A stretch of DNA of 64,000 nucleotides from Thermotogota bacterium (GCA_039679545.1 JBDKUT010000163.1:17997-81996), one strand, 5' to 3'; counted from the first letter of the stretch, positions 15,023 through 38,859 are shown. Notes: generated by a model not told the origin, from the sequence alone. Numbers and translations are program-made.

Positions 15023-15246
15023 GTGCCCTCCTTCGTCTCTAGAGAGACGCACGCGGGCACGCCGTCGAACAAGAGGGAAAAGAGAGACAGGAAAGCAGCC
15101 CACGCGCGTCCATTGCGCGGCTGTACGTCAGCCGCGGATGTTCGCCGCGATCGAGCTACTCCGTCATCGGAATGCCTCCCTGAATCACTGCACTCCAGTA
15201 TAGCGGCCGCATCGGCCGTCGCTCAACGTCCAGGCGAATTCTCGAG

Positions 15247-17524: not shown

Positions 17525-18351
17525 GTCTGGCACCGCGGGCAGACGTAACAGGACCCGCCGAGGTACTGCGTCTTCGCGATCGGAGTGCCGCAGGTCGGAC
17601 ACGGCCGCCCGGCCGCGCGGCCGTCGAGGAGGGGCACGTAGCGCCCGGGTTCGTCGAAGAGATCCCGTTCGGTGTCACGCCCGCCGAGGTTCGCCGCCTC
17701 TTGGAGCGTCTGGCGAAGCGCGCGGTACAACGCCGCCCTCTCCTCCGGCGAGAGGCTCGACACCTTGCGCTTGGGGCTCAAGCGCGCGCGGAACAGGACG
17801 TCCTGCAGGTACCCATTCCCGATTCCCGCGACGTTCGGCGAGTGCGTCAAGAAGGCCTTGATCGGTTTGTCCTGGCCCGCCGCGTGGCGATCTAGCCGCT
17901 CGAAGAACGCAGCCTCCGTGAACCCGGCGTCGAGCGGCGTAAACGCGAGGGTCCCCGCGTAGGGATGCCGGACGATCTCATCCTGTGTGAGCACGCCGAG
18001 GAAACCCCACATTTGGATCGCGAGCGAGAAGTGCGACCCGTCGTCGAACTCCGCGATCCAGTGTCGCTTGGCGGGAATCGGCGTCCCCGCGGGGTGGAAG
18101 AGAAGGCGCCCGCCGAACTCGCCGAACAGGAGCGTCCGCCCGTCATCCAGGCTACAGAAGATCCACCGCCCGCGGGAAGTTGCCTCCTCGATACGGCGGC
18201 CCGCCAGGGCGCGTTCGAAGGCGGGCGTGTCGGGCGAAAGGAAGAGGAACTTGGGACGTCCGGCTGGCACTTCCACACGCACGATCGTCCTCCCGACAAC
18301 CGTCCCCTCAAGTTGCCGCGCCAGATGGATGACCTCCGGGAGCTCGAACAT
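17521..18351 (-). CDS. Fpg/Nei family DNA glycosylase (formamidopyrimidine-DNA glycosylase-like) with Pro2 replaced by Phe
   Basis: N-terminal MFELPEV, H2TH region, C-terminal zinc finger CPTCG...CYVCPRC; GGAGG RBS 5 nt before ATG 18351. Confidence 0.85.
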   Translation of the reverse strand: MFELPEVIHLARQLEGTVVGRTIVRVEVPAGRPKFLFLSPDTPAFERALAGRRIEEATSRGRWIFCSLDDGRTLLFGEFGGRLLFHPAGTPIPAKRHWIAEFDDGSHFSLAIQMWGFLGVLTQDEIVRHPYAGTLAFTPLDAGFTEAAFFERLDRHAAGQDKPIKAFLTHSPNVAGIGNGYLQDVLFRARLSPKRKVSSLSPEERAALYRALRQTLQEAANLGGRDTERDLFDEPGRYVPLLDGRAAGRPCPTCGTPIAKTQYLGGSCYVCPRCQT

Positions 18352-18360
18352 GCCAACCTC

Positions 18361-18807
18361 CTACTCGATGCGCTGCAGGCCCAAGTATCGTGTCTTGGGA
18401 AACCCGCGCTGCAGGTCGTCCCAAAGGAGTCCCTTCAGGATCGCCGGATGAACGACCCAATCAGCCATTTCGCCGCGGGACGCGAAGCACGCTTCGACGA
18501 CAAAGCCTTCGTCGGGGTCTCGGTGCTCGACGGTCGGCGACCCCTCGGCCGCCCGCGCGAGAATCCAGAACTTGCAGAAGTGGAGGTCCCCCTCGAGAAA
18601 CTCCTCGATGTAGACGACGCGCTCGGGCACGACGTTGAGGCCCGTCTCTTCATACGTCTCGCGCCGGGCGCAGTCGAAGATCGACTCCTCGCCGCGAAGC
18701 CGCCCGCCGGGGGGGACCCAGAAGTCCTGTCGGCTGTCCAGGTGGTGCACGACCAGAAGAGCGCCCTCCCGGGCGACGATCGCGCCGGCACTGATCGCGT
18801 AGCGCAT
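18361..18807 (-). CDS. NUDIX hydrolase
   Basis: Nudix box GGRLRGEESIFDCARRETYEETGL; start chosen at MRYAISAG (weak RBS). Confidence 0.8.
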   Translation of the reverse strand: MRYAISAGAIVAREGALLVVHHLDSRQDFWVPPGGRLRGEESIFDCARRETYEETGLNVVPERVVYIEEFLEGDLHFCKFWILARAAEGSPTVEHRDPDEGFVVEACFASRGEMADWVVHPAILKGLLWDDLQRGFPKTRYLGLQRIE

Positions 18808-18900
18808 GGTCTTGTGAGTGTCTTCCCGAGGCCGTCCGGCTTCAATCCCTCCCCATGGCGCGCCCAACCTCGATCGGCTATGGTAGCCATCGAGGGGACG

Positions 18901-20925
18901 ATGGCTCACGATTCCTGGCTTGACGAACTGAATCCCGCACAGCGCGCCGCCGTCACGCACGGCGCTGGCCCGCTGCTCGTCGTGGCGGGTGCCGGCACCG
19001 GCAAGACGAAGACCCTCGCCTATCGCGTCGCCTACCTGATCTCGCAAGGCGTCGACCCAGGGCGGATTCTCCTCCTCACGTTCACGCGCCGTGCGGCGCA
19101 GGAGATGCTTGAGCGCGCGTCAACCATCGTCGCTCGCGGTGCCTCGTCGGCAGGACGGGTCTGGGGAGGCACGTTCCACTCGATGGCCCACCGCCTGCTC
19201 CGGCTCTACGCTCCGTCTATCGGGATCGCCCGTGACTTCACCGTCCTCGATCAGGGCGATGCAGAGAACCTGATCCACTTCATCCGCCACGAGATGGGCC
19301 TCCACGAGAAGGAAAAGCGATTCCCTCGAAAGGGAACGTGTCTCGCCATTTACTCGCGCTGCGTGAACTCCGGTGACGACCTCAAGGCCGTCCTCGAGCG
19401 CGACTTCCCGTGGTGCGATGAATGGGAAGAGGAGCTCCGGACGCTGTTCAGGAAGTACGTCGTCCGCAAGCAGGATCGAAGCGTCCTCGATTATGACGAC
19501 CTCCTCCTGTACTGGATGGCTCTGCTCGACGTCCCGCAGCTGGCCGACGAGATCGGCGGACGGTTCGATCACGTTCTCGTGGACGAGTACCAGGACACGA
19601 ACATCGTGCAGGCGCGGATTCTCTTCGGGATGCGCAAGACGTGCCGCAACCTCATGGTCGTCGGCGATGACGCCCAGAGCATCTATGCGTTCCGCGGCGC
19701 CACGGTGCGCAACATGCTCGATTTCCCAGCGCAGTTCCCGGGAGCGACGATCGTCAAGCTTGAGCAGAACTACCGATCCGTCCTCCCGATCCTCGACACG
19801 GCGAATCGCCTGATCGCCGGGGCAAGCGAACGATTCGTCAAGGACCTCTGGTCGGAACGTCGGAGCACGACCCGACCGAAGCTCGTCACCTGCAAGGACG
19901 CCGCCGAGCAGGACGAGTACGTCGTCGACGCCGTGCTTCGGCACTACGAGGAAGGCATTCCCCTCCGCCGCCAGGCGATCCTCTTCCGCGCTGCCCACCT
20001 CTCCGACACACTCGAGATCGAGCTCGCGCGGCGGAACATCCCGTACCACAAGTACGGCGGGCTCCGTTTTCTCGAAGCCGCTCACGTGAAGGACCTACTC
20101 GCCTTTCTCCGCGTGCTTGAGAATCCTCGCGACGAGCTGGCGTGGTTCCGCATCCTTGAACTTCTGGAGGGAGTCGGTCCGACAACGGCGTCACACGTCG
20201 TCGAGCACGTCGGACAGAGCGGCAATGACCCGCGTGTTGTTCGCTCGTTCGGCGGCTCTGCCGCCGCGCGTGCCGGTCTCGCCGACCTCGCCGATGTCTT
20301 CGACGACCTCGTCCCGCTCGGACCGAAGAACCCCGAGGCGCAGATTGAGCGGATCCGACGCTTCTATGACCCCGTGTTCGAGAGAACGTATGAGAACCCG
20401 GTTGTTCGGGTCCGCGACCTGATCAGTCTTGAGCAGATTGCCGGGGGATACCGCTCACGACACCAGTTCCTCGCCGACGTTCAACTCGACCCGCCGACCT
20501 CAACGAGCGATCTCGCCGGAGCCCCCCACCTGGACGAGGATTGGCTCGTTTTGTCGACGATCCACTCGGCCAAGGGGTGCGAGTGGGACGTCGTCTACCT
20601 CATCCACGCCGCCGATGGATTCCTCCCGTCCGACCTCTCGACCGGCTCGCAGGATGAGATTGAGGAGGAGCGCCGCCTCGTCTACGTAGCGCTCACCCGA
20701 GCGAAGGATCACCTCTACATCACGTGGCCTCTGCGCTACTACCACAAGTGGTACGCGCTCGGTGACGACCACGGCTACGCCCAGCTCTGTCGCTTCTTCA
20801 CCCCAGACGTGCTCGACACGATCGACAACGTTGCACTCGCGGCACCCAAAGAGAGGGACGACGGAGGATCGTTCTACGACGTCGACGCGGACGTACGGCA
20901 GCGGATGCGTGACATGTGGGAGTAG
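18901..20925 (+). CDS. UvrD/PcrA/Rep family ATP-dependent DNA helicase
   Basis: Helicase motifs AGAGTGKT (Walker A), DEYQDT, VGDDAQSIY, C-terminal VALTRAK; 675 aa from ATG 18901. Confidence 0.9.
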   Translation: MAHDSWLDELNPAQRAAVTHGAGPLLVVAGAGTGKTKTLAYRVAYLISQGVDPGRILLLTFTRRAAQEMLERASTIVARGASSAGRVWGGTFHSMAHRLLRLYAPSIGIARDFTVLDQGDAENLIHFIRHEMGLHEKEKRFPRKGTCLAIYSRCVNSGDDLKAVLERDFPWCDEWEEELRTLFRKYVVRKQDRSVLDYDDLLLYWMALLDVPQLADEIGGRFDHVLVDEYQDTNIVQARILFGMRKTCRNLMVVGDDAQSIYAFRGATVRNMLDFPAQFPGATIVKLEQNYRSVLPILDTANRLIAGASERFVKDLWSERRSTTRPKLVTCKDAAEQDEYVVDAVLRHYEEGIPLRRQAILFRAAHLSDTLEIELARRNIPYHKYGGLRFLEAAHVKDLLAFLRVLENPRDELAWFRILELLEGVGPTTASHVVEHVGQSGNDPRVVRSFGGSAAARAGLADLADVFDDLVPLGPKNPEAQIERIRRFYDPVFERTYENPVVRVRDLISLEQIAGGYRSRHQFLADVQLDPPTSTSDLAGAPHLDEDWLVLSTIHSAKGCEWDVVYLIHAADGFLPSDLSTGSQDEIEEERRLVYVALTRAKDHLYITWPLRYYHKWYALGDDHGYAQLCRFFTPDVLDTIDNVALAAPKERDDGGSFYDVDADVRQRMRDMWE

Positions 20926-21016
20926 CCAGTTCTGTGGGCGACGCCGGCCCTCCGAGGAGTGAGAGCCTCGAGCGCGCCTGTTCCATTCCATTGGGTTGTA
21001 GCGACATGCGGCGGTA

Positions 21017-21105
21017 TTGACGAGGACCGGCCTCGGATTATAATGGCAACGATTTCGGAAAACGATACACCTTAGAACTGAACAGCGCGAAAACGTTTTC
21101 CGAAA
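21017..21105 (+). promoter_or_regulatory. Sigma70-type promoter TTGACG-16-TATAAT plus LacI-family operator (tttcggaaaacg ... palindrome GAAAACGTTTTC), copy 1
   Basis: -35 ~21017-21022, -10 ~21039-21044; 12-mer at 21053-21064 and its reverse complement at 21094-21105; element duplicated at 27073-27161. Confidence 0.6.
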
Positions 21106-21111
21106 CAGCCC

Positions 21112-21402
21112 ATGAACCGACGAGAGCCGAGGAAGCGAGCCACAGTCCGCGACGTCGCACTTCGCGCCAGTGTATCCATCGGCAACGTCTCCCGAGTGAT
21201 CAACTACGGTGTCTCCTCCCAAGTGCACGACACGACGCTCACGCGTCTGACCCAGGGTGCATATCAACTCACGCGATCCACAATTACAGGAGACACCCCG
21301 CAAGCACGAGCGATACGAAAACGCTGCCCGTGCAGCAAGGGAGGTGGTCGCAGAGCCAATGCGCTTGGTGCATTACGTGATGATAATGTCATATACATTT
21401 AA
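21112..21402 (+). pseudogene. LacI-family regulator remnant retaining only the HTH headpiece (first ~47 codons homologous to the intact paralog at 27168)
   Basis: MNRREPRKRATVRDVALRASVSIGNVSRVIN...SSQVHDTT aligns with the 27168 gene; remainder of ORF unrelated, ligand-binding domain absent. Confidence 0.55.
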
Positions 21403-21413
21403 AGGAGGTTGCG

Positions 21414-23000
21414 GTGGTCATTAGGCGTAAGCGCGTGTACGTCGCAGTTCTCGTAGGAGCGCTGTCCTTGTTGCTCTATGGGACGCCTCTGCTCGCTAGT
21501 ACTCCTGCAGACACCTTGGTCGTTGGAACCTTGCAGGAGATCTCTCTTGTGGACCCATCTATCGACTACAGCTTCACCGGCGGGCCCATCTTCCCAGCTG
21601 CGTATGAGCGCCTCGTCACCTTCAATAGCCACACCGGGAAGGTTGAGCCTGAGCTAGCCGTCAGTTGGGACATATCGGAGGACGGCACGGTCTACACCTT
21701 CAACGTGCGGCAGGGAGTGCAGTTTCACGATGGGTCAGCCCTCAACGCGGAATCTGTCAAGATCGCGTTTGACCGAACGATGAAGATCAACAGGGGACCG
21801 GCATGGATGCTGCGCGACTACGTCAAGGAAGTCGCTGTCGTCTCACCCTACGTCGTGCAGATTACTCTGAAGGCTCCGTTCGGCCCCTTCTTGAAGGTGC
21901 TGACCTCCTCTTGGGGTATGTCGATCATGAGCCCGAAAGCCTTGGCCGATCATGAGGAAGCGGGCGATCTCGCGCAAGGCTGGTTCCACGACAATATGTG
22001 CGGCACGGGACCGTACAAACTCGTCAGCTGGACGAAGGGCCAACAGATGGTGTTCGAGAAGTTCGACGCATATTGGCGCGGATGGGACGGGAACCATGTT
22101 GACCGAGTCATCGTGCGGGTGGTCCCTGACCCTACGACCTTGGTCATGATGCTTCGAAACGCTGATATAGACATCGCCTCGTACGGGCTGGTTTCCGAGT
22201 TAGGACCAAGCCTCGAGGGTGCCCCCCACTTGGTCACAGAGTCATACGAGACCTACACAACGGAAGCCGCTTTCATGAACACGACACGCGCCCCTCTTGA
22301 CGACGTCAGAGTGCGCCGAGCCATGTCGTACTCATTCCCCTACGAGGGAGCCTTGCAGGCCTATGGCGGCTACGCGGAGCGCTTGATTGGCCAATTGCCG
22401 CCCTCCTTGCCTGGTTTTGATCCCAACAGTCAGGTCTATCATCAAGACCTGGCCCTGGCCAAGAAACTGCTCACGGAAGCAGGAATCAATGAGGGTAGCC
22501 TGGCCTTGGAGTGCACGTGGGTTACTGAACAGCCAACCGGTGGAAGAATCGCCGAGCTCTGGCAACAGGATCTGGCAACGATCGGAGTGACCCTCAAGCT
22601 GACCGAGGTGAACGCTGCCGGCGGTTGGCTCCGAATATCCAGCCCGGAGACAACGGCTGACTTCACGATCACGAGGTGGGGAGTCGACTACCCTGACGCT
22701 CTGTCCAATCTGCTGCCTCTATACAAGAGCGATCTCACACCTGACAAAGGCGGGTACAACATCGGGCGATACAGCAATCCCTACGTGGATCAGCTCCTCA
22801 TCCAAGCCTCTCAGGAGGCGAATGTAGAAAAGGCAGTGCTCCTGGAGCAAGAAGTTCAACGCTACATCACGGACGATGCCCCGTCCATCTTCATCGTTGC
22901 AGTACCGCAGCTTGTCTGCTATCAGGACACCGTCAAGGGGTTTGTCTACGACCCGGGCTACTTCAGCTCCTTCAACCTCTATAACATGTACAAGGAGTAG
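21414..23000 (+). CDS. ABC transporter substrate-binding protein, family 5 (peptide/nickel/opine type)
   Basis: Signal peptide, SBP_bac_5 pattern; ~60% identical to paralog 28295..29854; AAAGGAGG RBS before GTG. Confidence 0.9.
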   Translation: MVIRRKRVYVAVLVGALSLLLYGTPLLASTPADTLVVGTLQEISLVDPSIDYSFTGGPIFPAAYERLVTFNSHTGKVEPELAVSWDISEDGTVYTFNVRQGVQFHDGSALNAESVKIAFDRTMKINRGPAWMLRDYVKEVAVVSPYVVQITLKAPFGPFLKVLTSSWGMSIMSPKALADHEEAGDLAQGWFHDNMCGTGPYKLVSWTKGQQMVFEKFDAYWRGWDGNHVDRVIVRVVPDPTTLVMMLRNADIDIASYGLVSELGPSLEGAPHLVTESYETYTTEAAFMNTTRAPLDDVRVRRAMSYSFPYEGALQAYGGYAERLIGQLPPSLPGFDPNSQVYHQDLALAKKLLTEAGINEGSLALECTWVTEQPTGGRIAELWQQDLATIGVTLKLTEVNAAGGWLRISSPETTADFTITRWGVDYPDALSNLLPLYKSDLTPDKGGYNIGRYSNPYVDQLLIQASQEANVEKAVLLEQEVQRYITDDAPSIFIVAVPQLVCYQDTVKGFVYDPGYFSSFNLYNMYKE

Positions 23001-23010
23001 TTTCTTCTTT

Positions 23011-23040
23011 CCCCCTGCGGTGCCTGCGCACCGCAGGGGG
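23011..23040 (+). other. Intercistronic perfect 13-bp stem-loop (ccccctgcggtgc-ctgc-gcaccgcaggggg) between SBP and permease genes
   Basis: Read directly from sequence; no T-tract downstream on + strand, so likely mRNA-stabilising/attenuating rather than a full terminator. Confidence 0.6.
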
Positions 23041-23053
23041 CCCATTCGACATC

Positions 23054-24067
23054 ATGGCCTACGTCATCTACGTCCTGAAGAGATGCGCTCTGCTGCTGCT
23101 CGTGATCCTTGGGGTCGTGACACTGACCTTTTTCGTATCTCACGTGCTGCCTGCGGATCCCGCCAGACTCAGCGGCGGGATCCGTGCTAGACCGGAACAG
23201 GTCGAAGCCCTTAGGGCAAAACTGAACCTCGACAAGCCCATACTCACGCAGTATTGGCTGTATCTTAGGGGACTGTCGAGAGGCGACTTGGGTACCTCGG
23301 TTCGCACGGAGCAACCAGTGAGTAGAGATCTTCTCACCTACTTTCCCGCTACTCTTGAGTTGACGTTCTCTGCGGTGATGCTTGCCATGTGCGTCGGTAT
23401 CCCGCTCGGAGTCCTTTCGGCCACCTCAAGAAGACGCTTCTTCGACTTCGGTGTCAGGACCTTCTCTGTTGGCGCTGTCTCTATACCCTCGTTCTGGCTT
23501 GGCCTGATGCTTCAACTGGTGTTCTACATGAACCTCAACCTGCTGCCTTGCCAAGGACGCCTCAGCCCCTTTGTCGCCCCTCCCAGCCACACTACCGGCC
23601 TGTACGTTCTAGATAGTCTCTTGGCTTGGAACGGTGCAGCCCTGGTCAACTCTCTGCAGCACCTCGTTCTGCCCACGCTGGCCTTAGGTGCTGGATCACT
23701 TGCAGTCATGACACGAATGACGCGGTCCAGCGTACTTGAGGTTCTTCGTACTGACTATGTTCAGACAGCGTGGGCGAAGGGGCTCTCGAAACAGGCCGTT
23801 CTCCTCAAGCATGTGCTTCGGAACGCTCTCCTGGCAATATCCACCGTGATAGGCCTTCAAATCGGCGCTCTTCTTGCAGGATCTATCCCCATCGAAGTCG
23901 TGTTCTCCTGGCCTGGTGTTGGCTCCTACGCTGCGAAAGCCATCACGTTTGTGGATTTCAACGCCATTCTCGGGGTCACCATCATCAGCGCGGTGGCATA
24001 TGCAGTGCTGAATCTCATGATCGATCTGCTGTACTTGTCAATTGACCCGCGTATTAGGTATGTCTAG
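23054..24067 (+). CDS. ABC transporter permease (DppB/OppB-like)
   Basis: 6-TM BPD_transp_1 pattern; paralog of 29924..30928. Confidence 0.9.
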   Translation: MAYVIYVLKRCALLLLVILGVVTLTFFVSHVLPADPARLSGGIRARPEQVEALRAKLNLDKPILTQYWLYLRGLSRGDLGTSVRTEQPVSRDLLTYFPATLELTFSAVMLAMCVGIPLGVLSATSRRRFFDFGVRTFSVGAVSIPSFWLGLMLQLVFYMNLNLLPCQGRLSPFVAPPSHTTGLYVLDSLLAWNGAALVNSLQHLVLPTLALGAGSLAVMTRMTRSSVLEVLRTDYVQTAWAKGLSKQAVLLKHVLRNALLAISTVIGLQIGALLAGSIPIEVVFSWPGVGSYAAKAITFVDFNAILGVTIISAVAYAVLNLMIDLLYLSIDPRIRYV

Positions 24068-24457
24068 CGCGCCTGACTCCATGCGAAAAACCGGCAGCCA
24101 ACCAGCCAAACATAGGCCAGCGGTTCTCGGTCGCCTAGGCCTCCGCCCTCTATTGTTGTGTTTTCTGCAACGGGGTTGCGTGGGCCTAGAGGGATCGATG
24201 TGGCTGATCCTCGACTATGACTGGCTCCGACGCTGGGCCGTGGCGTTCGGGTGCGCGAAGCGCCTCATGCGGACTGGGACACAGCGAGTGCTGCCCGGCT
24301 GCGAATCCGACATGTCATGGCGCATCCGGGCGGCGCCTGACCCTGCACGCCGCATCGCCGATAGCCAACCGAGAAGCCCAGTCCCCGCAACGGTCACGCC
24401 GCCACAATGGAGGTCCGCCGAGTGATCAGGAAGAGCTGCTACCTAGCCCGCAAGCTG

Positions 24458-25294
24458 ATGAGCGTCCAGCGGGTCATCTCCAAGGATGCAATCGGCGTAG
24501 TGGGAGCATCGATATGTGTGCTCATGCTGGGCATTGCGCTGCTTGCCCCGCACATTGCGCCCTACAATCCTTTGGCAGCGGACATGAAGATCCGGCTAGT
24601 CGCTCCGTGCGCTGCGCATGTCATGGGAACGGATGAACTGGGCCGAGACGTCCTTTCTCGGGTGATCTACGGCTCTCGGATCTCACTGCTCGTATCGATT
24701 TCGGTTGTCTCTATCGCGTTCCTCGCCGGGGTCCTCTTGGGCGCTGTCAGTGGCTTCTTTGGCGGCTGGGTCGACAACCTCATCATGCGGGTGACAGATG
24801 TCTTCCTTGCGTTCCCCGCATTGATGCTGGCGATGGTTGTTGCGTTCGCCTTCGGTCCCGGAATCCGTTCAACCGTTCTGGCGATGTCGGTTGTCTGGTG
24901 GCCCTGGTATGCACGGCTGGTGCGGGCTTCTGCTCTCTCCATTAGGGAGCACACATTCGTTGAAGCCGCTCGTGCTACTGGTGTTTCGAGGGGGGGCATC
25001 CTCTTCCGCCACATACTCCCAAACTGCCTCGCTTCGTCTCTCGTGCAGGCGACGTTGGATATGGGGTATGCCATCCTTACGACAGCGACTCTGAGTTTTC
25101 TGGGCCTCGGCGCGCAGCCCCCAACCCCCGAATGGGGATCAATGATCAACCAGTCACGATCGTATCTTCTGGTCGCGTGGTGGACAATTACGTTTCCAGG
25201 CATAGGCATCTTCATCACAGTGCTCGGGATCAATCTCCTCGGAGATGCCGTTCGGGATTTCATGGACCCGAAACTGCGCCATGTCAGGAACTGA
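24458..25294 (+). CDS. ABC transporter permease (DppC/OppC-like)
   Basis: Paralog of 30941..31792; start set at MSVQRV (ORF extends to 24407). Confidence 0.85.
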   Translation: MSVQRVISKDAIGVVGASICVLMLGIALLAPHIAPYNPLAADMKIRLVAPCAAHVMGTDELGRDVLSRVIYGSRISLLVSISVVSIAFLAGVLLGAVSGFFGGWVDNLIMRVTDVFLAFPALMLAMVVAFAFGPGIRSTVLAMSVVWWPWYARLVRASALSIREHTFVEAARATGVSRGGILFRHILPNCLASSLVQATLDMGYAILTTATLSFLGLGAQPPTPEWGSMINQSRSYLLVAWWTITFPGIGIFITVLGINLLGDAVRDFMDPKLRHVRN

Positions 25295-25306
25295 GAATGG
25301 AGGACC

Positions 25307-26359
25307 ATGATGGCAGAACCAAGATGGAGTGACTATTCTGGTGTTGTGCACGTCCACTCTACGTGTTCTGATGGCTTGGGTTCGATGGAACAGATCATCG
25401 ATGCGGCGTGTGCGGAGCACCTGGATTACCTGATTACTACGGATCACAACACGCTGGCACCAAGGCACCATGAAGGATGGCACGGCGATACCCTCGTCCT
25501 GGTAGAAGAGGAAGTCACTCAACCCGCCAACCATCTCTTGGCTTTGAACATCCGCGATGAGATCGTTCCGCCAATTAGCCCACAGCAATCGATCGACGCA
25601 GTGCTCGCACAGGGGGGGCTCGCTTTCATGGCCCATCCCTTCTATCAGGGGAGCAAACTTCTCGGCGATCCACCGATCCCCTGGACTGATTGGAAGGCGA
25701 CTGGCTTCACCGGGATGGAGATCTGGAACTTCACGGCGGAATTGTATGAGAGCCTCTCGGAAGAGAAGGAGCTGCGACCGCTCGAGACGTATCGTGCGCT
25801 GATGCGGCCTAAAGCAGAGGTGTTGAGAACATGGGACCGGCTTCAGCAAGAACGCCGCGTTGTAGGCCTTGCTGGGCTTGATGCTCATGCGGAGCAGATC
25901 GTGCAAGGCGGAGAGAGAGTGACTCTATTGCCTTACGCAACGATATTCCGCACTCTCCGCATGCATGTACTCCTTGAGCATCCATTCACCGGTAGCCTGC
26001 CAGATGACAGACGAGCTGTCTATGCGGCTCTACGAGACGGTCATGGTTATATCGCCTTCGAATACGAGTCCCCAGTAGACTCCTTCACCTTTGCGGCCGT
26101 TGACAGAACGGGAGCAATTGCAGGGGTGATGGGCGATGAGTTCGGATGGAAGCCTGGCATGCGTTTGTCCATCGCACTCCCCAGACCAGCAGCAATCAGG
26201 GTCATCCGGAATGGAGAAACGCTCGAAGAGGTCTGCGGCCCTTCACTCCTTCTTTCTGTTGAAGAGGACGGCTGCTATCGCGTAGAGGTCCAGCGGGACG
26301 CTCTCCCGTGGATAGTGTCCAACCCCATATACATTCGAAATGGGCGCTCCTCAACTTGA
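25307..26359 (+). CDS. PHP-domain metal-dependent phosphoesterase
   Basis: N-terminal HVHSTCSDG...TDHN PHP motifs; GGAGGA RBS; present only in copy 1 of the duplicated operon. Confidence 0.8.
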   Translation: MMAEPRWSDYSGVVHVHSTCSDGLGSMEQIIDAACAEHLDYLITTDHNTLAPRHHEGWHGDTLVLVEEEVTQPANHLLALNIRDEIVPPISPQQSIDAVLAQGGLAFMAHPFYQGSKLLGDPPIPWTDWKATGFTGMEIWNFTAELYESLSEEKELRPLETYRALMRPKAEVLRTWDRLQQERRVVGLAGLDAHAEQIVQGGERVTLLPYATIFRTLRMHVLLEHPFTGSLPDDRRAVYAALRDGHGYIAFEYESPVDSFTFAAVDRTGAIAGVMGDEFGWKPGMRLSIALPRPAAIRVIRNGETLEEVCGPSLLLSVEEDGCYRVEVQRDALPWIVSNPIYIRNGRSST

Positions 26360-26374
26360 GAAGAGCAGTACGGC

Positions 26375-26520
26375 GTGTTGGACGGCCGCCTAGCACAGCG
26401 GATGCGGATGCAGGCCATGCGGGCCGAGGTCGGCTGCACAGTTCGCCGGTCGCCGATCGACCGGGCACTCGGGCCTTTGACCGCGCGTTCACCGCAGCGG
26501 GAAAGACGTTCGGCCGCTGA
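26375..26520 (+). pseudogene. Class-III aminotransferase remnant: first ~15 codons fused to last ~30 codons (internal ~1.3 kb deletion)
   Basis: MLDGRLAQRMRMQ ~ MMDGYLAQRKRMQ of 31838 gene; ...IDRALG...RAFTAAGKTFGR* ~ C-terminus IDRALGIFDRAFAAAERKFGR*. Confidence 0.55.
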
Positions 26521-26529
26521 GGTGGGCCA

Positions 26530-26700
26530 CGCCACAAGTCAGCCAGCCAAGGTGCCGTGCTCGGGTCAACCAACGCCGGCCTCGTCGCACGCATGGCCTC
26601 GCTGCCGCAGCCGGGAGAGATGGCCCTCAGTCATGTCGCACTACCCGGGCGGAGAATAGCCCAACCAGGCCGTCGCGGCCGACACGCCGGGAGGTGGACG
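26530..26700 (+). pseudogene. pfkB/ribokinase-like kinase remnant (start codon lost, frameshift and in-frame stop)
   Basis: Nucleotide homology to 33305.. (gccagtcATGagccaaccagcc vs gccacaagtcagccagcc; VLGSTNAGLVARMASLPQPGEMALS vs [25 protein letters not shown]); end approximate. Confidence 0.5.
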
Positions 26701-27072
26701 AGCTCCTCTACGTCCACCCAAACCACGGGCTCCCCTCGTTCACTGCGTTCCGCAGTGGCTGATCGGGGCGCGGACGCTCGATGGGTCCATCTCGGAAGCG
26801 GTCTCGGACTTGGCCGCCTCGAGACGATGCCGTGAGCCGACGCCATCACGACTTTTCCTGTCACGATGAGCAGACGCACGGCCGCGGACTCCACACCGGG
26901 GAACCCAGGCAAACGAACAAGAGCGACGGTTCACCGACACGTCCACAGGAACGAGCACTTTTCTGATAACCGCCTCGCGGAGTTGTCAAGTCACGTGAAG
27001 GATCTCCGGAAAGCCGGACGCTGGAGAGGTCTCCTGCTCGACTTTGGCTAGTCGGAGCGGTTTGCGTCGGCA

Positions 27073-27161
27073 TTGACTGGGGGTGAGTCCTGACTATAAT
27101 GGCAACGATTTCGGAAAACGATACCCCGAAGAACCGAACAGCGCGCAAACGTCTTCCGAAA
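27073..27161 (+). promoter_or_regulatory. Sigma70-type promoter TTGACT-16-TATAAT plus LacI-family operator, copy 2 (upstream of intact LacI gene)
   Basis: -35 ~27073-27078, -10 ~27095-27100; tttcggaaaacg 27109-27120; cgtcttccgaaa 27150-27161 (1 mismatch to inverted copy). Confidence 0.6.
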
Positions 27162-27167
27162 CACTCC

Positions 27168-28232
27168 ATGAATCGACGAGAGCCGAAGAAGCGAGCCACG
27201 ATCCGCGACGTCGCCCTCCGCGCAGGGGTTTCGATCAGCACCGTCTCCCGGGTGATCAATCACAAGGACTCCTCGCAAATGCGCGACACCACGCGGGAGC
27301 GCGTCGTCGACGCGATGGCGGCCCTCGACTACACGCCGGTGAAGGCCGCCCGCGACCTGCGCCGGCGAAGAACTCACGTCGTGGCCCTCCTCGTCCCCGA
27401 CATCTCCAATCCGTTCTTCTCGCTCCTCGCACGCGGGGTCGAGGCCGCCGGATTCAAGGTGGGGTACTCGACGCTGATCTGCGACACCAACAACTCCGGG
27501 GACGAGGAGCGGCAGTACATGAGCGTCCTCCTTCGGCAGAACGTGGACGGGGTGATCCTGGTCCCGGTAGGAAAGCCCGACCGCGCGAGTCTGGAGAGGC
27601 TGGACCGCTCGAACATCCCGGTGGTCACGGCGGATCGCCGGGCGCCGGGCATCCCGCACGTCGAGGCCGACAACGCCGGAGGCAGCCGCAACCTGGCGAA
27701 GAGCCTCGTCAGCCTTGGGTACCGAAGGATCGCGTACCTCGGAGGCCCGCAAGAGGTCAGTACGGCCGAGGACCGGCTCCAAGGCTTTCTGGAAGGCCTC
27801 GCCGAAGGCGGCGCCGCTCCGGCGGCGGTTCGCCGAGGAGATTTCACGTACGACTCCGGGGTGTCCTTGGGCGCCGAGATTCTGGGGGAAAAGCGCCTGG
27901 ACGCCGTCGTCGCCGGCAACGACCTGATGGCGATCGGCGTCCTCCACGCGGCGATGGCTGCGGGGCGAAGAGTGCCCGAGGACCTTGGAGTCGCCGGATT
28001 CGACGACATTCAGTGGGCGGCCCTCGTGCGGCCGCGGCTCACCACGGTCCGGGTCCCCTTTCTGGAGATCGGGCAGTGCGCGGCACGTGCCCTCGTCGCC
28101 CGCATCCTGTCCCACGAGAGCGCAGAGGAGCACACCCGTCTCCCCGTCAGCTTGGTAATCGGCGACTCGACGTGTGCACAAAGGAATACAGGACTGGGTC
28201 GTCCTCGGGGAACGGACCCGAAAGCGAGGTGA
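27168..28232 (+). CDS. LacI family transcriptional regulator
   Basis: N-terminal HTH (ATIRDVALRAGVSISTVSRVIN) and periplasmic-binding-like sugar-binding domain; 354 aa. Confidence 0.9.
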   Translation: MNRREPKKRATIRDVALRAGVSISTVSRVINHKDSSQMRDTTRERVVDAMAALDYTPVKAARDLRRRRTHVVALLVPDISNPFFSLLARGVEAAGFKVGYSTLICDTNNSGDEERQYMSVLLRQNVDGVILVPVGKPDRASLERLDRSNIPVVTADRRAPGIPHVEADNAGGSRNLAKSLVSLGYRRIAYLGGPQEVSTAEDRLQGFLEGLAEGGAAPAAVRRGDFTYDSGVSLGAEILGEKRLDAVVAGNDLMAIGVLHAAMAAGRRVPEDLGVAGFDDIQWAALVRPRLTTVRVPFLEIGQCAARALVARILSHESAEEHTRLPVSLVIGDSTCAQRNTGLGRPRGTDPKAR

Positions 28233-28294
28233 TCGAAGGTCGAAGGGCAGTTCGGGAGCGTAGGCTACGGCAAGTGTGCAGGGAGGCTTGAACC

Positions 28295-29854
28295 ATGAGA
28301 ACCCGTTTTGCTTGTTGCCTTGTGGCGTTGCTCGGCGTCTCGGCGGTCTCCGCGATCGCCTCCACCCCCGCCGACACCTTGGTGGTCGGGGTTGTGGAGG
28401 AAGTCACGACGATGGATCCCGCTATCGACTACACGTTTGGAAGCGGACCGCTCTTCCGGGCCGCTTACGAAAGGCTCGTGACCTTCAACACGGCGTCCGG
28501 GAAGATCGAGCCGCAGCTGGCTCTCTCCTGGGACGTGTCGGACGACGGCCAGTTCTACACGTTCCACCTCCGCAAGGGCGTGACGTTCCACGACGGCGCG
28601 GCGTTCAACGCAGCGGCCGTAAAGACGGCCTACGACCGCGTCATGACGATCAACGAGGGTCCGGCGTGGATGCTGACCTCGTACGTCGCGGCAATCGATG
28701 TCGTGGATGACGCGACCGTCCGATTCACAATGAAGACGTACCCATTCGTCCCATTCCTGCGCGTGCTCAGCTCCTATTGGGGCATGTGCATCGCCAGCCC
28801 CACCGCCATCACCCAGAACGCGGGCGACGACATGGGGAAGACGTTCTTCCGAAATCACATCGTCGGAACCGGCCCGTACAAGCTCGTCGAGTGGGTCGAG
28901 GGCCAGCAGATGGTGTTTGAGCGCTTTGACGGGTACTGGGGCGGCTGGACCGGCAACCACGTGAACCGCATCGTGCTGCGGAAGATCCTCGACACGACGA
29001 CGATGGCCCTGCTCCTCGAGAGCGGCGACCTGGACATCGCGTACGGGATCCCGCTCGATGAGCTGACGAGCCTGAACGGCAAGCCCGGCGTCGTCATCGG
29101 CGTCCACGACACGTTCACGACGAACATGATCGCGATGAACACGACGAAGGGCCCGCTCGCCGACGTTCGCGTGCGCCGAGCGCTCTCCTACTCGTTCGAC
29201 TACGCGAGCGCGATGGAGGTCTTTGCCGGGTACACAACGCCCCTCATTGGCCAGATTCCGGCCGGCATGCCGGGTCACGACGACAGCCTGCCGCACTACG
29301 TCTTCGACCTCGACGTGGCGAAGCAGCTGCTCGCCGAAGCAGGGTACGCGAAGGGGCTTTCGCTCGAGTACACCTGGGTCACGGAAGAGCCGGAGGGACG
29401 CCGGGTCGGCGTTCTGTGGCAGGACACGCTACGGAAGATCGGCGTCGATTTGAAGGTCACCGAAGTCACGGTCGCCGGACACTGGGACCGAGTCTCGAAC
29501 ATCGAGACGATGCCGGATCTCGCCAACTACCGGTGGGGCATCGACTACCCAGACCCGTCGTCCGTCCTGGTGCCGCTCTACCACGGCGACAACGCGCCCC
29601 CGGCGGGCTACAACCTCTCGCGGCTCGCGGATCCGCGGGTCAACGCCATCCTCGACGCATCGGGGAAGGAACCCGATGAGACGAAGAGACTCCAACTCCT
29701 GGCGGAGGCCCAGTCGCTCCTGCTGACCGGTGCTTCCAACATCTGGATCACGGCGGTTCCGGTCACGGTCTGCATGCGCAGCAACGTGCAGGGCTACGTT
29801 TTTGAACCGGCCGCGTTCTCATCGTTCAACTTCTACGACATCTACAAGAAGTAG
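28295..29854 (+). CDS. ABC transporter substrate-binding protein, family 5
   Basis: Signal peptide; SBP_bac_5 pattern; GGGAGG RBS. Confidence 0.9.
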   Translation: MRTRFACCLVALLGVSAVSAIASTPADTLVVGVVEEVTTMDPAIDYTFGSGPLFRAAYERLVTFNTASGKIEPQLALSWDVSDDGQFYTFHLRKGVTFHDGAAFNAAAVKTAYDRVMTINEGPAWMLTSYVAAIDVVDDATVRFTMKTYPFVPFLRVLSSYWGMCIASPTAITQNAGDDMGKTFFRNHIVGTGPYKLVEWVEGQQMVFERFDGYWGGWTGNHVNRIVLRKILDTTTMALLLESGDLDIAYGIPLDELTSLNGKPGVVIGVHDTFTTNMIAMNTTKGPLADVRVRRALSYSFDYASAMEVFAGYTTPLIGQIPAGMPGHDDSLPHYVFDLDVAKQLLAEAGYAKGLSLEYTWVTEEPEGRRVGVLWQDTLRKIGVDLKVTEVTVAGHWDRVSNIETMPDLANYRWGIDYPDPSSVLVPLYHGDNAPPAGYNLSRLADPRVNAILDASGKEPDETKRLQLLAEAQSLLLTGASNIWITAVPVTVCMRSNVQGYVFEPAAFSSFNFYDIYKK

Positions 29855-29923
29855 GATTCGGCTCTCAGATGGGGGAGTTCCTCCGATGAGGAGAGGGCTC
29901 CCCCCTTGCTGGATCGGCAGGTC

Positions 29924-30928
29924 ATGGTTCGCTACATCGTGAAGCGGTTGGCGCTCTTGACCATCACGCTCCTGGGCGTGTTGACGCTGACCTTCTTTGT
30001 CTCGCACGTCGTTCCCGGAGATCCGGCGCGCCTCGCGGCGGGCGTACGCGCCAGGCCCGAACAGGTCGAAGCACTCCGAACAAGGCTCGGCCTCGACCGC
30101 CCGCTGTGGCAGCAGTACGGCCACTACATCGCTGGCGTGGTTCGGGGGGACCTCGGAGAGTCGATCCGGACGCGCCGTCCGGTCTCCGCCGACCTGGCCG
30201 AGTACTTCCCGGCCACGGTCGAACTCACCGCATTCGCCATGATCCTCTGTCTTCTCATCGGGATTCCACTCGGAATCGTCTCGGCCGTCAAGCGAGAGTC
30301 GGTCATCGACCACGTCTCCCGCGTCGCGTCGACGGCGGCCGTGTCCATGCCCACGTTCTGGCTCGGCCTGCTCTTGCAGCTCCTCTTCTTCCGTTGGCTC
30401 CAGATTCTCCCGGCGACGGGGCGCCTCGGCTTCTACCTCTCGCCGCCCGCCCACGCGACGGGGCTGTACGTGCTCGACAGCCTGTTCTCGGGGAACTGGA
30501 CCGCGCTCGGAGACAGCCTCGTCCACCTCATTCTCCCAGCCACGGCGCTCGCGGCGAGTTCCATGGCCGTGATCACGCGCATGACGCGATCGAGCCTCCT
30601 CGAGATCCTCTCCCTTGACTACGTCCGAACGGCTCGTTCGAAGGGACTGGCCGAGAAGGTCGTCATCCTCAAGCACGCACTTCGCAACGCGCTCTTGCCG
30701 AGTCTCACCGTCATCGGCCTGCAGGTTGGCGTGCTCCTGGCCGGAGCCGTGCTGATCGAAGTGGTCTTCAGCTGGCCCGGGATCGGGTTGTACGCCGTCC
30801 AATCCATCACGTTCGTCGACTTCCAGGCAATCCTCGGCGTCACCCTGATCACGGCGATCGTCTACTCCGGGGTCAACCTGATCGTCGACGTCTTGTACGG
30901 GGTCATCGACCCACGAATTCACTACTAG
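29924..30928 (+). CDS. ABC transporter permease (DppB/OppB-like)
   Basis: Start at MVRYIVKRL by analogy to paralog MAYVIYVLKR. Confidence 0.9.
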   Translation: MVRYIVKRLALLTITLLGVLTLTFFVSHVVPGDPARLAAGVRARPEQVEALRTRLGLDRPLWQQYGHYIAGVVRGDLGESIRTRRPVSADLAEYFPATVELTAFAMILCLLIGIPLGIVSAVKRESVIDHVSRVASTAAVSMPTFWLGLLLQLLFFRWLQILPATGRLGFYLSPPAHATGLYVLDSLFSGNWTALGDSLVHLILPATALAASSMAVITRMTRSSLLEILSLDYVRTARSKGLAEKVVILKHALRNALLPSLTVIGLQVGVLLAGAVLIEVVFSWPGIGLYAVQSITFVDFQAILGVTLITAIVYSGVNLIVDVLYGVIDPRIHY

Positions 30929-30940
30929 GAGAACGGGGAC

Positions 30941-31792
30941 ATGAAGGCATTCTGGGAGAAGCTCGGACGATGGATCGCGGTGAGGCCGCTCGCCGCCGCC
31001 GGAGCGGCGACCCTGCTCGCCATCCTGCTTCTCGCGCTCCTCGCACCGGTGCTCCCGCTTCAGGACCCTCAGTCCGTGAACATGCACGACAAGCTCCTTC
31101 CGCCGTCGGCGGCGCACCCGATGGGGACCGACGACCTCGGCCGCGACATCCTCAGTCGCGTCGTGAACGGTGCGCGGACCTCGCTCTTGGTGAGCGTTGT
31201 GGTCGTCGCCTGTGCCTCCGTGTTCGGCATGGGCGTCGGCCTGACGGCGGGCTACTTCGGTGGAATGGCGGACGAACTCATGATGCGGACGACGGACATC
31301 TTTCTCGCGTTCCCCGGACTCATCCTCGCCATGGCCGTCGCCGTCGTCCTCGGCCCCGGCGTCGTTCCGACGATCGTCGCTCTGTCCATCGTCTGGTGGC
31401 CGTGGTACGCCCGGCTGGCTCGATCGGAGGCGCTGATGCACAAGCAGGCGGACTTCGTGGAGGCGGCCCGAGCAACGGGCGTCCCGACGTGGAGGATCCT
31501 CCGTTCCCACATCCTTCCGAACTCGCTGTCGCCGCTCATCGTTCAGGCGACGCTCGACATGGGGTACGCGATCCTGACGACGGCGTCGCTGAGCTTTATC
31601 GGATTGGGCGTGCAGGAGCCGACCGCGGAATGGGGCGCCATGCTCAACATCGGCCGAAAGTACCTTCTCTCCGCATGGTGGTTCATCACGTTCCCGGGTC
31701 TCGCCATCTTCATCACGGTTCTGGCGATCAACCTCGCCGGAGACGGCCTTCGAGACTACCTCGACCCGAGAACGAGGAAACGGGGCGCCTGA
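30941..31792 (+). CDS. ABC transporter permease (DppC/OppC-like)
   Basis: 6-TM permease; AGGAGAACGGGGAC ATG. Confidence 0.9.
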   Translation: MKAFWEKLGRWIAVRPLAAAGAATLLAILLLALLAPVLPLQDPQSVNMHDKLLPPSAAHPMGTDDLGRDILSRVVNGARTSLLVSVVVVACASVFGMGVGLTAGYFGGMADELMMRTTDIFLAFPGLILAMAVAVVLGPGVVPTIVALSIVWWPWYARLARSEALMHKQADFVEAARATGVPTWRILRSHILPNSLSPLIVQATLDMGYAILTTASLSFIGLGVQEPTAEWGAMLNIGRKYLLSAWWFITFPGLAIFITVLAINLAGDGLRDYLDPRTRKRGA

Positions 31793-31837
31793 CCCGCTTC
31801 GGGGCGGGCGCCCCACGTTAAAACAAAGGAGTACGAC

Positions 31838-33292
31838 ATGATGGACGGTTACCTGGCGCAACGTAAGAGGATGCAGATCTCGCAGGTCGAGATCGATCGG
31901 CGCATCGCGGAAGCCCCATTCGGACCTGCCTCGAAGGAGTGGGCGAGCCGCTGGCTCTCCGCCGAATCGTGGGGGCAGGTCGGCCTCGCGCTGTTCGACC
32001 TTCCGCCGATCGTCGAACGCGCGGAGAACGACCTCTTGATCGACGCCGACGGCAAAGAGTACGTTGACCTCTTGGCGGGATTCTCGGTTTCCTCGCTCGG
32101 GCAGTGCAACGAGGAGATCGCCCAGGTCATCCGCAACCAGGTCGGGAAGCTCGTCCACTACTTCGATCTACCCCACCCCGAGCGGATCAAGCTCGCCGAG
32201 CGCCTGAAGGAGATCTCGCCGATCGCCGGGAGTGACTCGCGCGTCTTATTCGGCGTCACCGGAGCGGACGCCATCGAGTTGTCGGTTCGCGCGGCGCGGT
32301 TCTACACCGGGCGACCTCTCATCCTGACCGCCTTCGGCGACTACCACGGCGTCACGTACAGCACGATGGCCCTGACGGGCAAGGGCGGCATGTGGGCGTA
32401 CTTCTACCCGGTGCTTCCGCACTGCGAAGGCATCGGGTACTTCCCGTTCCCGTATCCATACCAGTCGCCGTTTGGACGCCCGCCGGCCGGCGAAGACGAC
32501 CAGGCCTGGTGCCTCGACCGACTGCGCGACTACTTCGAGTACTACTTCAAGAGCAAAGAATCCCCCTACCGTGAAGTGAAGAGCGGAATCACCAACGTCG
32601 CCGCGTTCGTCGTCGAGCCATTTCAGAGTTCCGCCGGGTACATTCTCCCCTCCGCCGGCTACCTGAAACTCCTGCGGCGCTTGGCAGACGAGTACGGAAT
32701 CCTCCTGATCATCGACGAGATCCAGACAGGACTCGGGCGCACCGGGAAGCTCTGGGCCACCGACTGGGAGGACGTAAAACCTGACATGCTCGTCACGTCG
32801 AAGGCTCTCGGAGGTGGCCTGCCGCTCTCGGCCGTCGTGGCGCGCGCCGAGATCCTCGAGGCGTGGGGACCCGGAGCCCACGTCTCAACGCAGGCGGGCA
32901 ATGTCCTCGCTTGTGCTGCCGGGAACAAGGCCCTCGATCTCCTCACAGCGGACGGCTTCCTCGACAAGGTCCGAGCCCACGGTGCGTACTTCGAGGCCGA
33001 ACTCGCGACGCTCGCGAAGAAGCATCCTCTGATTGGCCACATCAATGCCCGCGGCATGTACATCGGACTCGAGCTCGTCCGAAACCGAGACACGCGAGAA
33101 CCCGCGCCGGATGAAGCCAGCTTCATTCTCAAGGAGTGCGTCCGCGAGGGGATGGTGTTCGAGAAGGGCGGGTACTTCCACAACCGATTCCAGCTCATCC
33201 CGCCGCTCACGATTCGTCGATCGACCATCGACCGGGCCCTCGGGATCTTCGACCGTGCGTTCGCGGCGGCAGAAAGGAAGTTCGGCCGCTGA
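31838..33292 (+). CDS. Class-III pyridoxal-phosphate-dependent aminotransferase
   Basis: DEIQTGLGRTGKLWA and TSKALGGG(L) (Schiff-base Lys) motifs; AAAGGAG RBS. Confidence 0.9.
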   Translation: MMDGYLAQRKRMQISQVEIDRRIAEAPFGPASKEWASRWLSAESWGQVGLALFDLPPIVERAENDLLIDADGKEYVDLLAGFSVSSLGQCNEEIAQVIRNQVGKLVHYFDLPHPERIKLAERLKEISPIAGSDSRVLFGVTGADAIELSVRAARFYTGRPLILTAFGDYHGVTYSTMALTGKGGMWAYFYPVLPHCEGIGYFPFPYPYQSPFGRPPAGEDDQAWCLDRLRDYFEYYFKSKESPYREVKSGITNVAAFVVEPFQSSAGYILPSAGYLKLLRRLADEYGILLIIDEIQTGLGRTGKLWATDWEDVKPDMLVTSKALGGGLPLSAVVARAEILEAWGPGAHVSTQAGNVLACAAGNKALDLLTADGFLDKVRAHGAYFEAELATLAKKHPLIGHINARGMYIGLELVRNRDTREPAPDEASFILKECVREGMVFEKGGYFHNRFQLIPPLTIRRSTIDRALGIFDRAFAAAERKFGR

Positions 33293-33304
33293 GGCGGGCC
33301 AGTC

Positions 33305-34255
33305 ATGAGCCAACCAGCCAGAGTGTCCGTGCTCGGGTCGATCAATGCTGACCTCGTTGCGCGTGTGGTTTCGCTGCCGCGGCCGGGAGAGACGGTCCTG
33401 AGCAGCTCGTTGTCGCACTATTCGGGAGGCAAGGGGGCGAACCAGGCGGTCGCCGCTGCGCGGATGTCGGCCCGCGTCACGTTCTACGGGAAGACGGGGG
33501 CCGACTCCGCGGGAGACCAACTTCTCGCCGGGCTCCGCACCGAGGGGATCGGCACAAAGCAGATCCAACGGATGAACGGGGTCGAGACGGGGATGGCACT
33601 CATTCTCGTCAGCGACGCAGGCGAGAACACGATCGTCGTCGTTGCGGGTGCCAACGATCACGTCGACGCGGAATACGTCGACGCGGTCATCACCGACGTC
33701 GGCTTTGCCGACACGCTTCTGCTTCAGTTCGAGGTTCCGCCCGAGGCGATCCGCCGTCTGCTCGATCGCCTCCCGCCGAATCGCCCAAAGGTGATCGTCG
33801 ATCCCGCTCCCGCGCGGGACGTTACCGACCTTCCGCTCGCCCGGATCGACGTCATGACCCCGAACCGAACTGAGTTGGCTGCGCTGACGGGCGTAGACGA
33901 CATCGAGACCGGCGGTCGACGCCTGCTCGATCGAGGCGTCAAGTGCGTCATCTGTACGTGCGGATCAGACGGCAGCTACCTCATCGAGAACAGGGGAACG
34001 ACCCACTTTCCAGCGTTCCCGGTGCACGCCGTCGACACGACGGCGGCGGGCGACGCGTTCGCGGGCGCCTTGGCCGTCTTCCTCTCCAGCGGGGACTCGA
34101 TCGCTGTCGCAATCCGCGCAGCAAACGCCGCGGCGGCGCTTTCGACCACACGCCCTGGCGCTCAACCGTCGTTGCCAACGCGGCGGGAGGTGGACCAATT
34201 CCTACAGGCCCACCCCGGCCACGGCATCCCCTCGTTTGCTCCGTTTCGCGGCTGA
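33305..34255 (+). CDS. pfkB-family carbohydrate kinase (ribokinase-like)
   Basis: [14 protein letters not shown] and [13 protein letters not shown] motifs. Confidence 0.9.
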
Positions 34256-34269
34256 TGCGGCGAGGGCGC

Positions 34270-37763: not shown

Positions 37764-37771
37764 GAGAGCCG

Positions 37772-38839: not shown

Positions 38840-38859
38840 CCGCGGCGGCTTCCATGCTG

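Follow-up and report, generated by a model that had tools for sequence, protein, structure and literature searches.

A probable mosaic operon beside an intact operon of the same kind in a genome labelled Thermotogota

How an operon can come to hold an intact transporter between the remnants of its repressor and of its enzymes, directly upstream of a complete operon of the same kind, is the question raised by a stretch of 64,000 nucleotides (GCA_039679545.1 JBDKUT010000163.1:17997-81996, hereafter the window, always at its full length) from a contig of a metagenome-assembled genome (MAG) with a GC content of 65%. The complete operon, copy 2, occupies 27056-34271 with its promoter (genes 27168-34255, plus strand, assigned with Pfam and NCBIfam), and the patchwork operon, copy 1, lies at 21000-26779 on the same strand and is colinear with it by blastn. 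An earlier note, made from the sequence alone, read copy 1 as one duplicate of copy 2 that decays in place by asymmetric loss. The asymmetry is borne out, the transport genes being intact and the regulator and two enzymes lost; the single origin is not. As judged from sequence comparison, copy 1 is, with moderate confidence, a mosaic of three layers: a promoter with its leader, a LacI stub together with enzyme relics, and a core that carries the transport genes. The features of the locus are the following.

21000-21111, plus strand: copy-1 promoter and 5' leader (-35 TTGACG at 21017-21022, -10 TATAAT at 21039-21044)
21112-21402, plus strand: stub open reading frame (ORF) of 96 codons, LacI codons 1-42 (21112-21237) fused to 54 unrelated codons
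21239-21413, no strand: left junction sequence, 53% GC, origin unassigned
21414-23000, plus strand: copy-1 family-5 (Dpp/Opp-type) substrate-binding protein, intact, 528 aa (SBP_bac_5, 279 bits)
23054-24067, plus strand: copy-1 permease 1 (DppB-like), intact, 337 aa (BPD_transp_1 and BPD_transp_1_N)
24068-24406, no strand: GC-rich (65%) spacer of 339 bp between the copy-1 permeases, where copy-2-type operons have 12-15 bp
24407-25294, plus strand: copy-1 permease 2 (DppC-like), intact (BPD_transp_1 and OppC_N)
25307-26359, plus strand: PHP-domain metal-dependent hydrolase, CehA/McbA-like, intact, 350 aa, by profile matches under the cut-offs
26364-26520, plus strand: aminotransferase relic, made up of the ribosome-binding site with codons 1-19 (26364-26432) and, fused to it, the final ~26 codons (26442-26520), from blastn, alignments and tblastn
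26534-26779, plus strand: kinase relic, ~50 codons of the 5' end joined to the last 30 codons and 16 nt downstream, from blastn and alignments
26780-27055, no strand: spacer between the relics and the copy-2 promoter, origin unassigned, with its sole match (75%) in L001, a locus of a different MAG
27056-27294, plus strand: second copy of a 232-bp repeat, with the copy-2 promoter (-35 at 27073, -10 at 27095), leader and LacI codons 1-42
27168-28232, plus strand: copy-2 LacI repressor (Pfam/NCBIfam, with matches to Peripla_BP_1, 3 and 4)
28295-29854, plus strand: copy-2 family-5 (Dpp/Opp-type) binding protein
29906-30928 and 30941-31792, plus strand: copy-2 permeases, DppB-like and DppC-like
31838-33292, plus strand: copy-2 class-III aminotransferase
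33305-34255, plus strand: copy-2 ribokinase, score above the TIGR02152 cut-off

The relation between the two copies is best approached through relatives in which there is only one. The locus L026 covers window 17987-21238 and 27063-39887 in two separate alignments, and L035 aligns with 18914-21203 and 27094-30625, from which it follows that both hold a single operon and that the window has ~5.8 kb of extra DNA, bounded by a 232-bp direct repeat. L026 and L035 lack the core, of which L001 has a part. Between the two copies of the window, the colinear segments found by blastn are the promoter with the region of the LacI helix-turn-helix (HTH), the binding protein, both permeases, and the ends of the aminotransferase and of the kinase. 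For the remnants, whose homology to copy 2 the earlier note had left to an alignment, four segments at 71-81% identity establish it: the promoter, the leader and LacI codons 1-42, at 21007-21238, pair with 27063-27294 (81%); the ribosome-binding site of the aminotransferase with its codons 1-19, at 26364-26432, pairs with 31827-31895 (71%); 26442-26679, with the last 26 aminotransferase codons and the first ~50 kinase codons, pairs with 33213-33456 (76%); and 26670-26779, with the last 30 kinase codons and 16 nt downstream, pairs with 34166-34271 (74.5%).

These homologous parts do not share a single divergence age along copy 1. In the core, identity to copy 2 at third codon positions is 36-47%, which amounts to saturation, against 63% in the relics. 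The copy-1 transport proteins show 50-60% amino acid identity to those of copy 2 and are equally far from four copy-2-type orthologs, which are mutually 73-96% identical, and the core is the outgroup to all copy-2-type orthologs, including that of L030. The flanks, by contrast, fall inside L027: the HTH stub is 75-79% identical to the group formed by the window, L001, L026 and L035, whereas L027 is 68-70% and L030 61% identical to that group. Since unconstrained relics stand nearer to copy 2 than the constrained core does, which is impossible at equal age, core and flanks must differ in history. Composition tells the same two parts apart. The third-position GC content (GC3) of the copy-1 transport genes is 0.64-0.71, well under the 0.86 of copy 2 and the 0.73-0.90 of most other called window genes, and so not the high GC3 that had been ascribed to them; the low-GC cassette as a whole has a GC3 of 0.59-0.71 and a GC content of 55-58%, against ~65% in the rest of the window and 69% in the relics. 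A core of low GC3 beside neutral relics that are still GC-rich (GC3 0.83 in the copy-2 frame) is unlikely to have been long in this genome. Among the properties of a foreign cassette, a composition unlike that of the host, a conflicting phylogenetic position and a patchy presence were thus all found, and donor or mobility genes were not.

In the light of these figures, a whole-operon tandem duplication in this lineage, followed by decay in place and by fast divergence of the transport genes, which is the model of the earlier note, is improbable. It would agree with the equal gene order of the two copies, with the direct repeat, made of the promoter and the 5' end of LacI, that bounds the extra DNA, as tandem duplication would give, and with the copy-2 type being the closest family of the copy-1 binding protein. 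It is contradicted by silent sites that are more diverged in the transport genes than in dead relics, by relics whose GC3 leaves local mutation pressure as no explanation for the low GC of the core, and by a core that branches outside L030 and flanks that branch inside L027. Moreover, L035, the closest single-copy relative, is without copy 1, and yet the divergence between the two copies exceeds that between the window and L035.

It is likewise unlikely, if less markedly so, that the two operons are ancient tandem paralogs, each once complete and copy 1 with the PHP gene in addition, that gene conversion from copy 2 later homogenised the ends of copy 1 in part, and that several relatives lost copy 1 through recombination between the repeats. 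Such loss would be easy between 232-bp direct repeats, operons that combine transporter, PHP gene and aminotransferase do exist (L033, L034), and the relics of the window are closer to copy 2 than those of L001 are, which could reflect conversion. But a long stay in a genome of 65% GC should lift the GC3 of the core towards 0.85, well above what is observed, independent losses would be needed at least in the L026 and L035 lineages, and the nucleotide homology to LacI ends abruptly at 21238 instead of fading. Replacement of the interior of a second operon by a distant cassette remains the preferred reading.

Which genes this cassette would have brought can be stated more closely. The binding protein covers positions 1-363 of the 368 of SBP_bac_5, is 51% identical to its copy-2 counterpart and has a GC3 of 0.71. 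An exhaustive search with it returned a copy-2-type protein as best match (50%, 571 bits), followed by the next at 38% and 370 bits, a gap that places the core in the same narrow subfamily as copy 2. Permease 1 is 60% identical to copy 2, with a GC3 of 0.64 and a third-position identity of 36%; permease 2 reaches 55% identity to copy 2 when aligned globally and 99% to L001, and its likelier start is a GTG at 24422 that follows GGAGG, where the gene call on an independently assembled contig (below) also begins. BPD_transp_1 is covered from position 1 to 183 of 184 in both permeases, and these full-length family matches confirm that the binding protein and both permeases are intact, as had been noted. 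Searches of 5.8 billion proteins and of 1.84 billion cluster representatives returned no core homolog above 54%. In the spacer between the permeases no significant repeats (searched over 24000-24480), no significant RNA fold (24068-24406) and no Rfam match (over 20900-27400) were detected, nor any homolog elsewhere in the window or in the other loci compared. Cognate ATPase genes (DppD/DppF-like) were found in neither copy and in none of the operons of L026, L027 and L030; a scan of 10 flanking window ORFs (~26 others were not scanned) returned one ABC ATPase, a two-domain protein at 13481-15103.

On the far side of the core, the enzyme stubs record an older episode. The ends of the aminotransferase, 19 and ~26 codons, are joined as the earlier note had described, and the loss it put at ~1.3 kb is, by blastn and alignments, of 1317 bp (31896-33212 in copy-2 coordinates). 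The kinase has indeed lost its start, which reads AGT at 26537-26539, and carries the reported TAG in that frame at 26657-26659, in addition to small indels; an internal deletion of 709 bp (33457-34165), whose end points sit in short imperfect direct repeats, had been missed. The aminotransferase is down to ~45 of its 484 codons and the kinase to ~80 of 316, frameshifts and a stop included, so that the catalytic cores are gone. Both deletion junctions are also present in L001, and the TAG of the kinase stub is found in the window only. Between the window and L001, the relics are ~72% identical overall and 72/69/74% identical by former codon position, an even spread that argues for neutral drift and hence for dead relics; against copy 2 the corresponding values are 80/82/63%, a pattern which indicates that the relics were working genes for part of the time since the split. 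The stubs are evidently genuine dead relics, and the deletions evidently predate the split of the window and L001 lineages. Two ORFs of 92-94 codons, 26375-26659 and 26557-26835, cross the relics, the first starting at a GTG that replaces the ATG of the aminotransferase. The ORFs over 26375-26835 are by-products of high GC and not genes.

As the window derives from a MAG and contains a 5-kb block of different composition, an artefact, either a chimeric contig of two organisms or mis-called indels, has to be considered; it is extremely improbable. A Logan contig (SRR15035647), made with another assembler, is 100% identical to window 20628-26043, that is, across the left junction and the core. 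L001 repeats the order of the window from permease 2 through the PHP gene, the relics and the spacer to copy 2, with equal deletion junctions, and both flanks are in L026/L035 order. Losses as large as 1317 and 709 bp do not arise from errors in base calling. The low-GC block is not a contaminant. What speaks for an artefact is the course of the identity to L001. Window 24876-25490 matches L001 23-640 (permease 2 and the first ~190 bp of the PHP gene) at 99-100%; beyond ~25490, identity in the PHP gene falls to 86% and then to 73%, and in the copy-2 genes it is ~94% (94-95%). In terms of silent-site distance, permease 2 and the first 63 PHP codons stand at 0.02-0.05, the remainder of the PHP gene at 0.6 and the copy-2 genes at 0.15-0.25. 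The breakpoint near 25490 is either a recent cassette exchange between lineages or strain switching in one of the assemblies.

The source organism also needs a comment. The PHP protein is an exact match of an NCBI entry labelled "Thermotogota bacterium", and the copy-2 proteins share 94-96% identity with their counterparts in a MAG of a Candidatus Bipolaricaulis sp., whose gene order agrees with the window on both sides of the locus, downstream genes included. The Thermotogota label of the source MAG is thus probably wrong, and a GC content of 65% also suits Bipolaricaulis. Exact-protein look-ups with the PHP protein, its NCBI-truncated form, the copy-2 LacI and the stub ORF returned no record; a scan of species-representative genomes with the PHP protein turned up only distant homologs, none above 39% identity, and the locus in no further genome; and a metagenome scan with the invariant leader motif (below) returned only single-copy relatives and one unrelated contig (L036).

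At the left end of copy 1, the ORF at 21112-21402 had been taken to keep only the DNA-binding headpiece of LacI. This holds for codons 1-42, and the 54 codons that follow are unrelated; the ORF scores 24.3 bits with Pfam LacI, short of the required 27, and the match spans only profile positions 1-34 of 46. The ORF lacks a third helix, a hinge and a dimerisation domain, and no Peripla_BP match was obtained. For the sequence after the break, 21239-21413, no nucleotide or protein similarity to LacI or to the other sequences compared was found; that the core had come with a LacI remnant of its own was considered and dropped, since tblastn of this stretch gave only chance-level matches.

Could the HTH-only ORF have been kept for a function of its own, as a DNA-binding decoy or as a translated leader coupled to the binding-protein gene? 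The notion is compatible with the mosaic and would suit the retention of the promoter, the start codon and the first 42 LacI codons, as well as an ORF that stays open for 96 codons and ends in a TAA 12 nt before the binding-protein start, where the stop abuts the ribosome-binding site AAGGAGG. It is scarcely probable all the same. The non-synonymous distance (dN) of the stub is 0.14-0.17 against 0.01-0.04 among intact orthologs, 5-10 times theirs, and near-invariant HTH residues are altered (AGVS to ASVS and STVSR to GNVSR, with a conserved G and T replaced). GC is flat over its codon positions (0.59/0.55/0.56), 54 open codons in DNA of 53% GC are not unlikely by chance, and the ORF is called as a gene by neither gene caller and stands in no record.

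The promoter and leader differ from the stub in how well they have been kept. The copy-1 promoter, a sigma-70-like match at 11 of 12 positions and one of the two best sites of the region, adjoins the UvrD gene upstream; its identity is 94.7% to the L035 promoter and 92.6% to that of L026, but only 80% to the copy-2 promoter. Promoter and leader together show 94.7% identity to L035, while the adjacent non-coding DNA shows 81%. As to the upstream neighbour, the 986-codon ORF at 17965-20925 is over-extended, its UvrD helicase domains beginning at residue 322, and the stretch of L026 that matches the upstream part of this ORF carries NUDIX and Fapy-glycosylase genes on the opposite strand.

Two elements of the leader stand out. 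An operator-like palindrome, CGAAAACGTTTTCC, lies at 21088-21101 with 1 mismatch and is unchanged in copy 1, L001, L026 and L035; the corresponding site of copy 2 (27144-27157) reads CGCAAACGTCTTCC, two changes away from the copy-1 site, so that the intact operon may be less tightly repressed than the patchwork one. Directly after the -10 element follows a 30-nt block, TATAATGGCAACGATTTCGGAAAACGATAC (21045-21074 and 27101-27130), which is identical in five of the six aligned sequences (both window copies, L001, L035 and L037) and has one mismatch in L026, in the midst of non-coding DNA that is ~75-85% identical. The block, which includes TTTCGGAAA, a motif met again in reverse complement at 21097-21105, could be a second operator. 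Promoter, 30-nt block and palindrome of copy 1 are thus conserved well above the non-coding background. A riboswitch was considered for these elements and set aside: a 12-bp hairpin of the copy-1 leader is marginal (z = -2.2) and absent from copy 2 (z = +0.4), and the elements are read as DNA operators.

The origin of the 232-bp repeat itself admits two accounts. A Campbell-type single crossover in the invariant leader is a possibility, which would leave a resident-like promoter and a diverged HTH in copy 1, and a diverged -35 and a resident-like HTH in copy 2; an old tandem duplication followed by recombination would be the other.

The remaining gene of the cassette, for the PHP hydrolase, is absent from copy 2, as had been reported, and a counterpart was found neither elsewhere in the window nor in the single-copy relatives. 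The protein scores 77.9 bits with NF038032 over nearly its full length (cut-off 80) and 22.8 bits with Pfam PHP (cut-off 26.4), shows N-terminal HxH and DH motifs, and has a single, weak match among solved structures (9etk, a PHP phosphoesterase, E=3e-4). Compared with L001, the gene shows purifying selection (omega 0.09-0.24). Homologs at 45% identity in two other lineages, L033 and L034, come directly after ABC permeases and adjoin an aminotransferase 77% identical to the copy-2 enzyme; a pairing that recurs in both loci marks the PHP gene as a recurrent pathway partner rather than a stray insertion. The hydrolase thus probably belongs, on sequence grounds, to the same pathway as the aminotransferase. 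The composition of related operons varies: L030 has an inosine-uridine nucleoside hydrolase (6688-7611) between aminotransferase and kinase, L027 (6578-7503) is without the kinase, and in L033 a truncated aminotransferase of 252 aa (8927-9685) adjoins the PHP gene. The occurrence of such enzymes together with a ribokinase hints at a ribosyl-amine-type or nucleoside-type substrate.

Several points weigh against a mosaic with replaced interior. The age comparison of flanks and core rests on ~370 aligned relic positions and 126 nt of HTH, and the comparison with a second genome covers copy 1 only from permease 2 on. None of the collections searched yielded a donor of the core, and in 21000-27100 there is no integrase or transposase ORF and no flanking attachment site, the sole bounding repeat being the 232-bp promoter/HTH repeat; the mechanism of replacement is accordingly deduced. 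The copy-2 promoter, in its -35 element and spacer, is more diverged than that of copy 1, which, together with the closeness of the window relics to copy 2 relative to those of L001, indicates that recombination or gene conversion has blurred the history. The swings of window-L001 identity, from 99-100% to ~72% along the locus, show that recombination or strain mixing in assembly overwrote part of the record.

With these reservations, the following history would reconcile the layers. The promoter and leader at 21000-21111 would be the ancestral promoter of the locus, still adjoining UvrD. Beside the resident operon would have lain another of its kind from the same genus-level group, either an old tandem duplicate or a related lineage's allele, which would have functioned for some time after its split from copy 2. 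A distant, lower-GC cassette with the PHP gene would recently have replaced its interior, a stretch that ran from LacI codon 43 through the last permease gene. With two operons in the genome, the second repressor, aminotransferase and kinase would then have been redundant, and deletions between short repeats would have destroyed them before the window and L001 lineages separated; the non-redundant transporter and PHP hydrolase would have been kept. As far as sequence can tell, the lost genes are the redundant ones, and the kept genes were never close duplicates. Transcription of the core would start at the retained promoter and run on across the stub ORF, and the copy-2 LacI would act on it in trans, as a repressor bound to the conserved putative operator. 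The core would feed the copy-2 aminotransferase and ribokinase, using, as copy 2 does, ABC ATPases encoded elsewhere. The spacer before copy 2 does not resemble the sequence that follows the copy-2 kinase.

A bolder version, which we regard as doubtful, holds that promoter, operator and LacI stub are selected as a regulatory adaptor that plugs an exchanged transporter-PHP cassette, passed among Bipolaricaulis lineages, into the resident LacI regulon. If it were true, one repressor and one enzyme set would serve two uptake systems of differing specificity, and the 99-100% core identity between genomes whose native genes are ~6% apart would be that of a swappable specificity module. Independently of this version, the locus is a clean, dated example of operon remodelling in the uncultivated phylum Bipolaricaulota, and in annotation neither the 96-codon "LacI" ORF nor the 90-codon ORFs over 26375-26835 should be called genes.

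Among known systems, the closest are the mosaic operons formed by xenologous gene displacement in situ, which Omelchenko et al. reportedly described in 2003. As in these, distant homologs of another phylogenetic position and composition fill part of an operon whose order and regulatory context are kept; unlike them, the displaced operon is here a second copy beside an intact one, and a promoter with stub and enzyme relics were left on either side, so that the steps are still visible. Both terms, mosaic operon and xenologous gene displacement in situ, are used in passages of the literature (PMC1779527, PMC4481853).

The flanks have parallels of another kind, with deletions between short direct repeats, start loss, stops and neutral drift common to related genomes. 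Such is the course of bacterial genome reduction, in which redundant paralogs decay to pseudogenes after duplication or acquisition. What differs here is the selectivity at operon scale, in that every gene lost had a near-identical counterpart at a distance of 6 kb. The transporter, in turn, recalls the shared orphan ABC ATPases that serve several importers, MsiK in Streptomyces and MsmX in Bacillus subtilis: operons without ATPase genes, as are both copies and those of the three relatives named above, must be served by an ATPase encoded elsewhere, although the known cases concern CUT1-type sugar importers and not, as here, the Dpp/Opp type. Carbohydrate importers controlled by LacI-family regulators and equipped with Opp/Dpp-type (family 5) binding proteins are described for Thermotoga maritima, the cellobiose-binding tmCBP being the example given in a passage of one paper (PMC3850815). 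The present operons share with them the family-5 binding protein and DppB/C-like permeases in the company of a LacI repressor and a sugar kinase rather than of peptide metabolism, but differ in their enzymes, a class-III aminotransferase and a ribokinase (plus the nucleoside hydrolase in L030), and in having no ATPase genes within the operon. All this calls for known processes only, namely mosaic operons and the decay of redundant genes, and leaves the understanding of operon evolution as it was.

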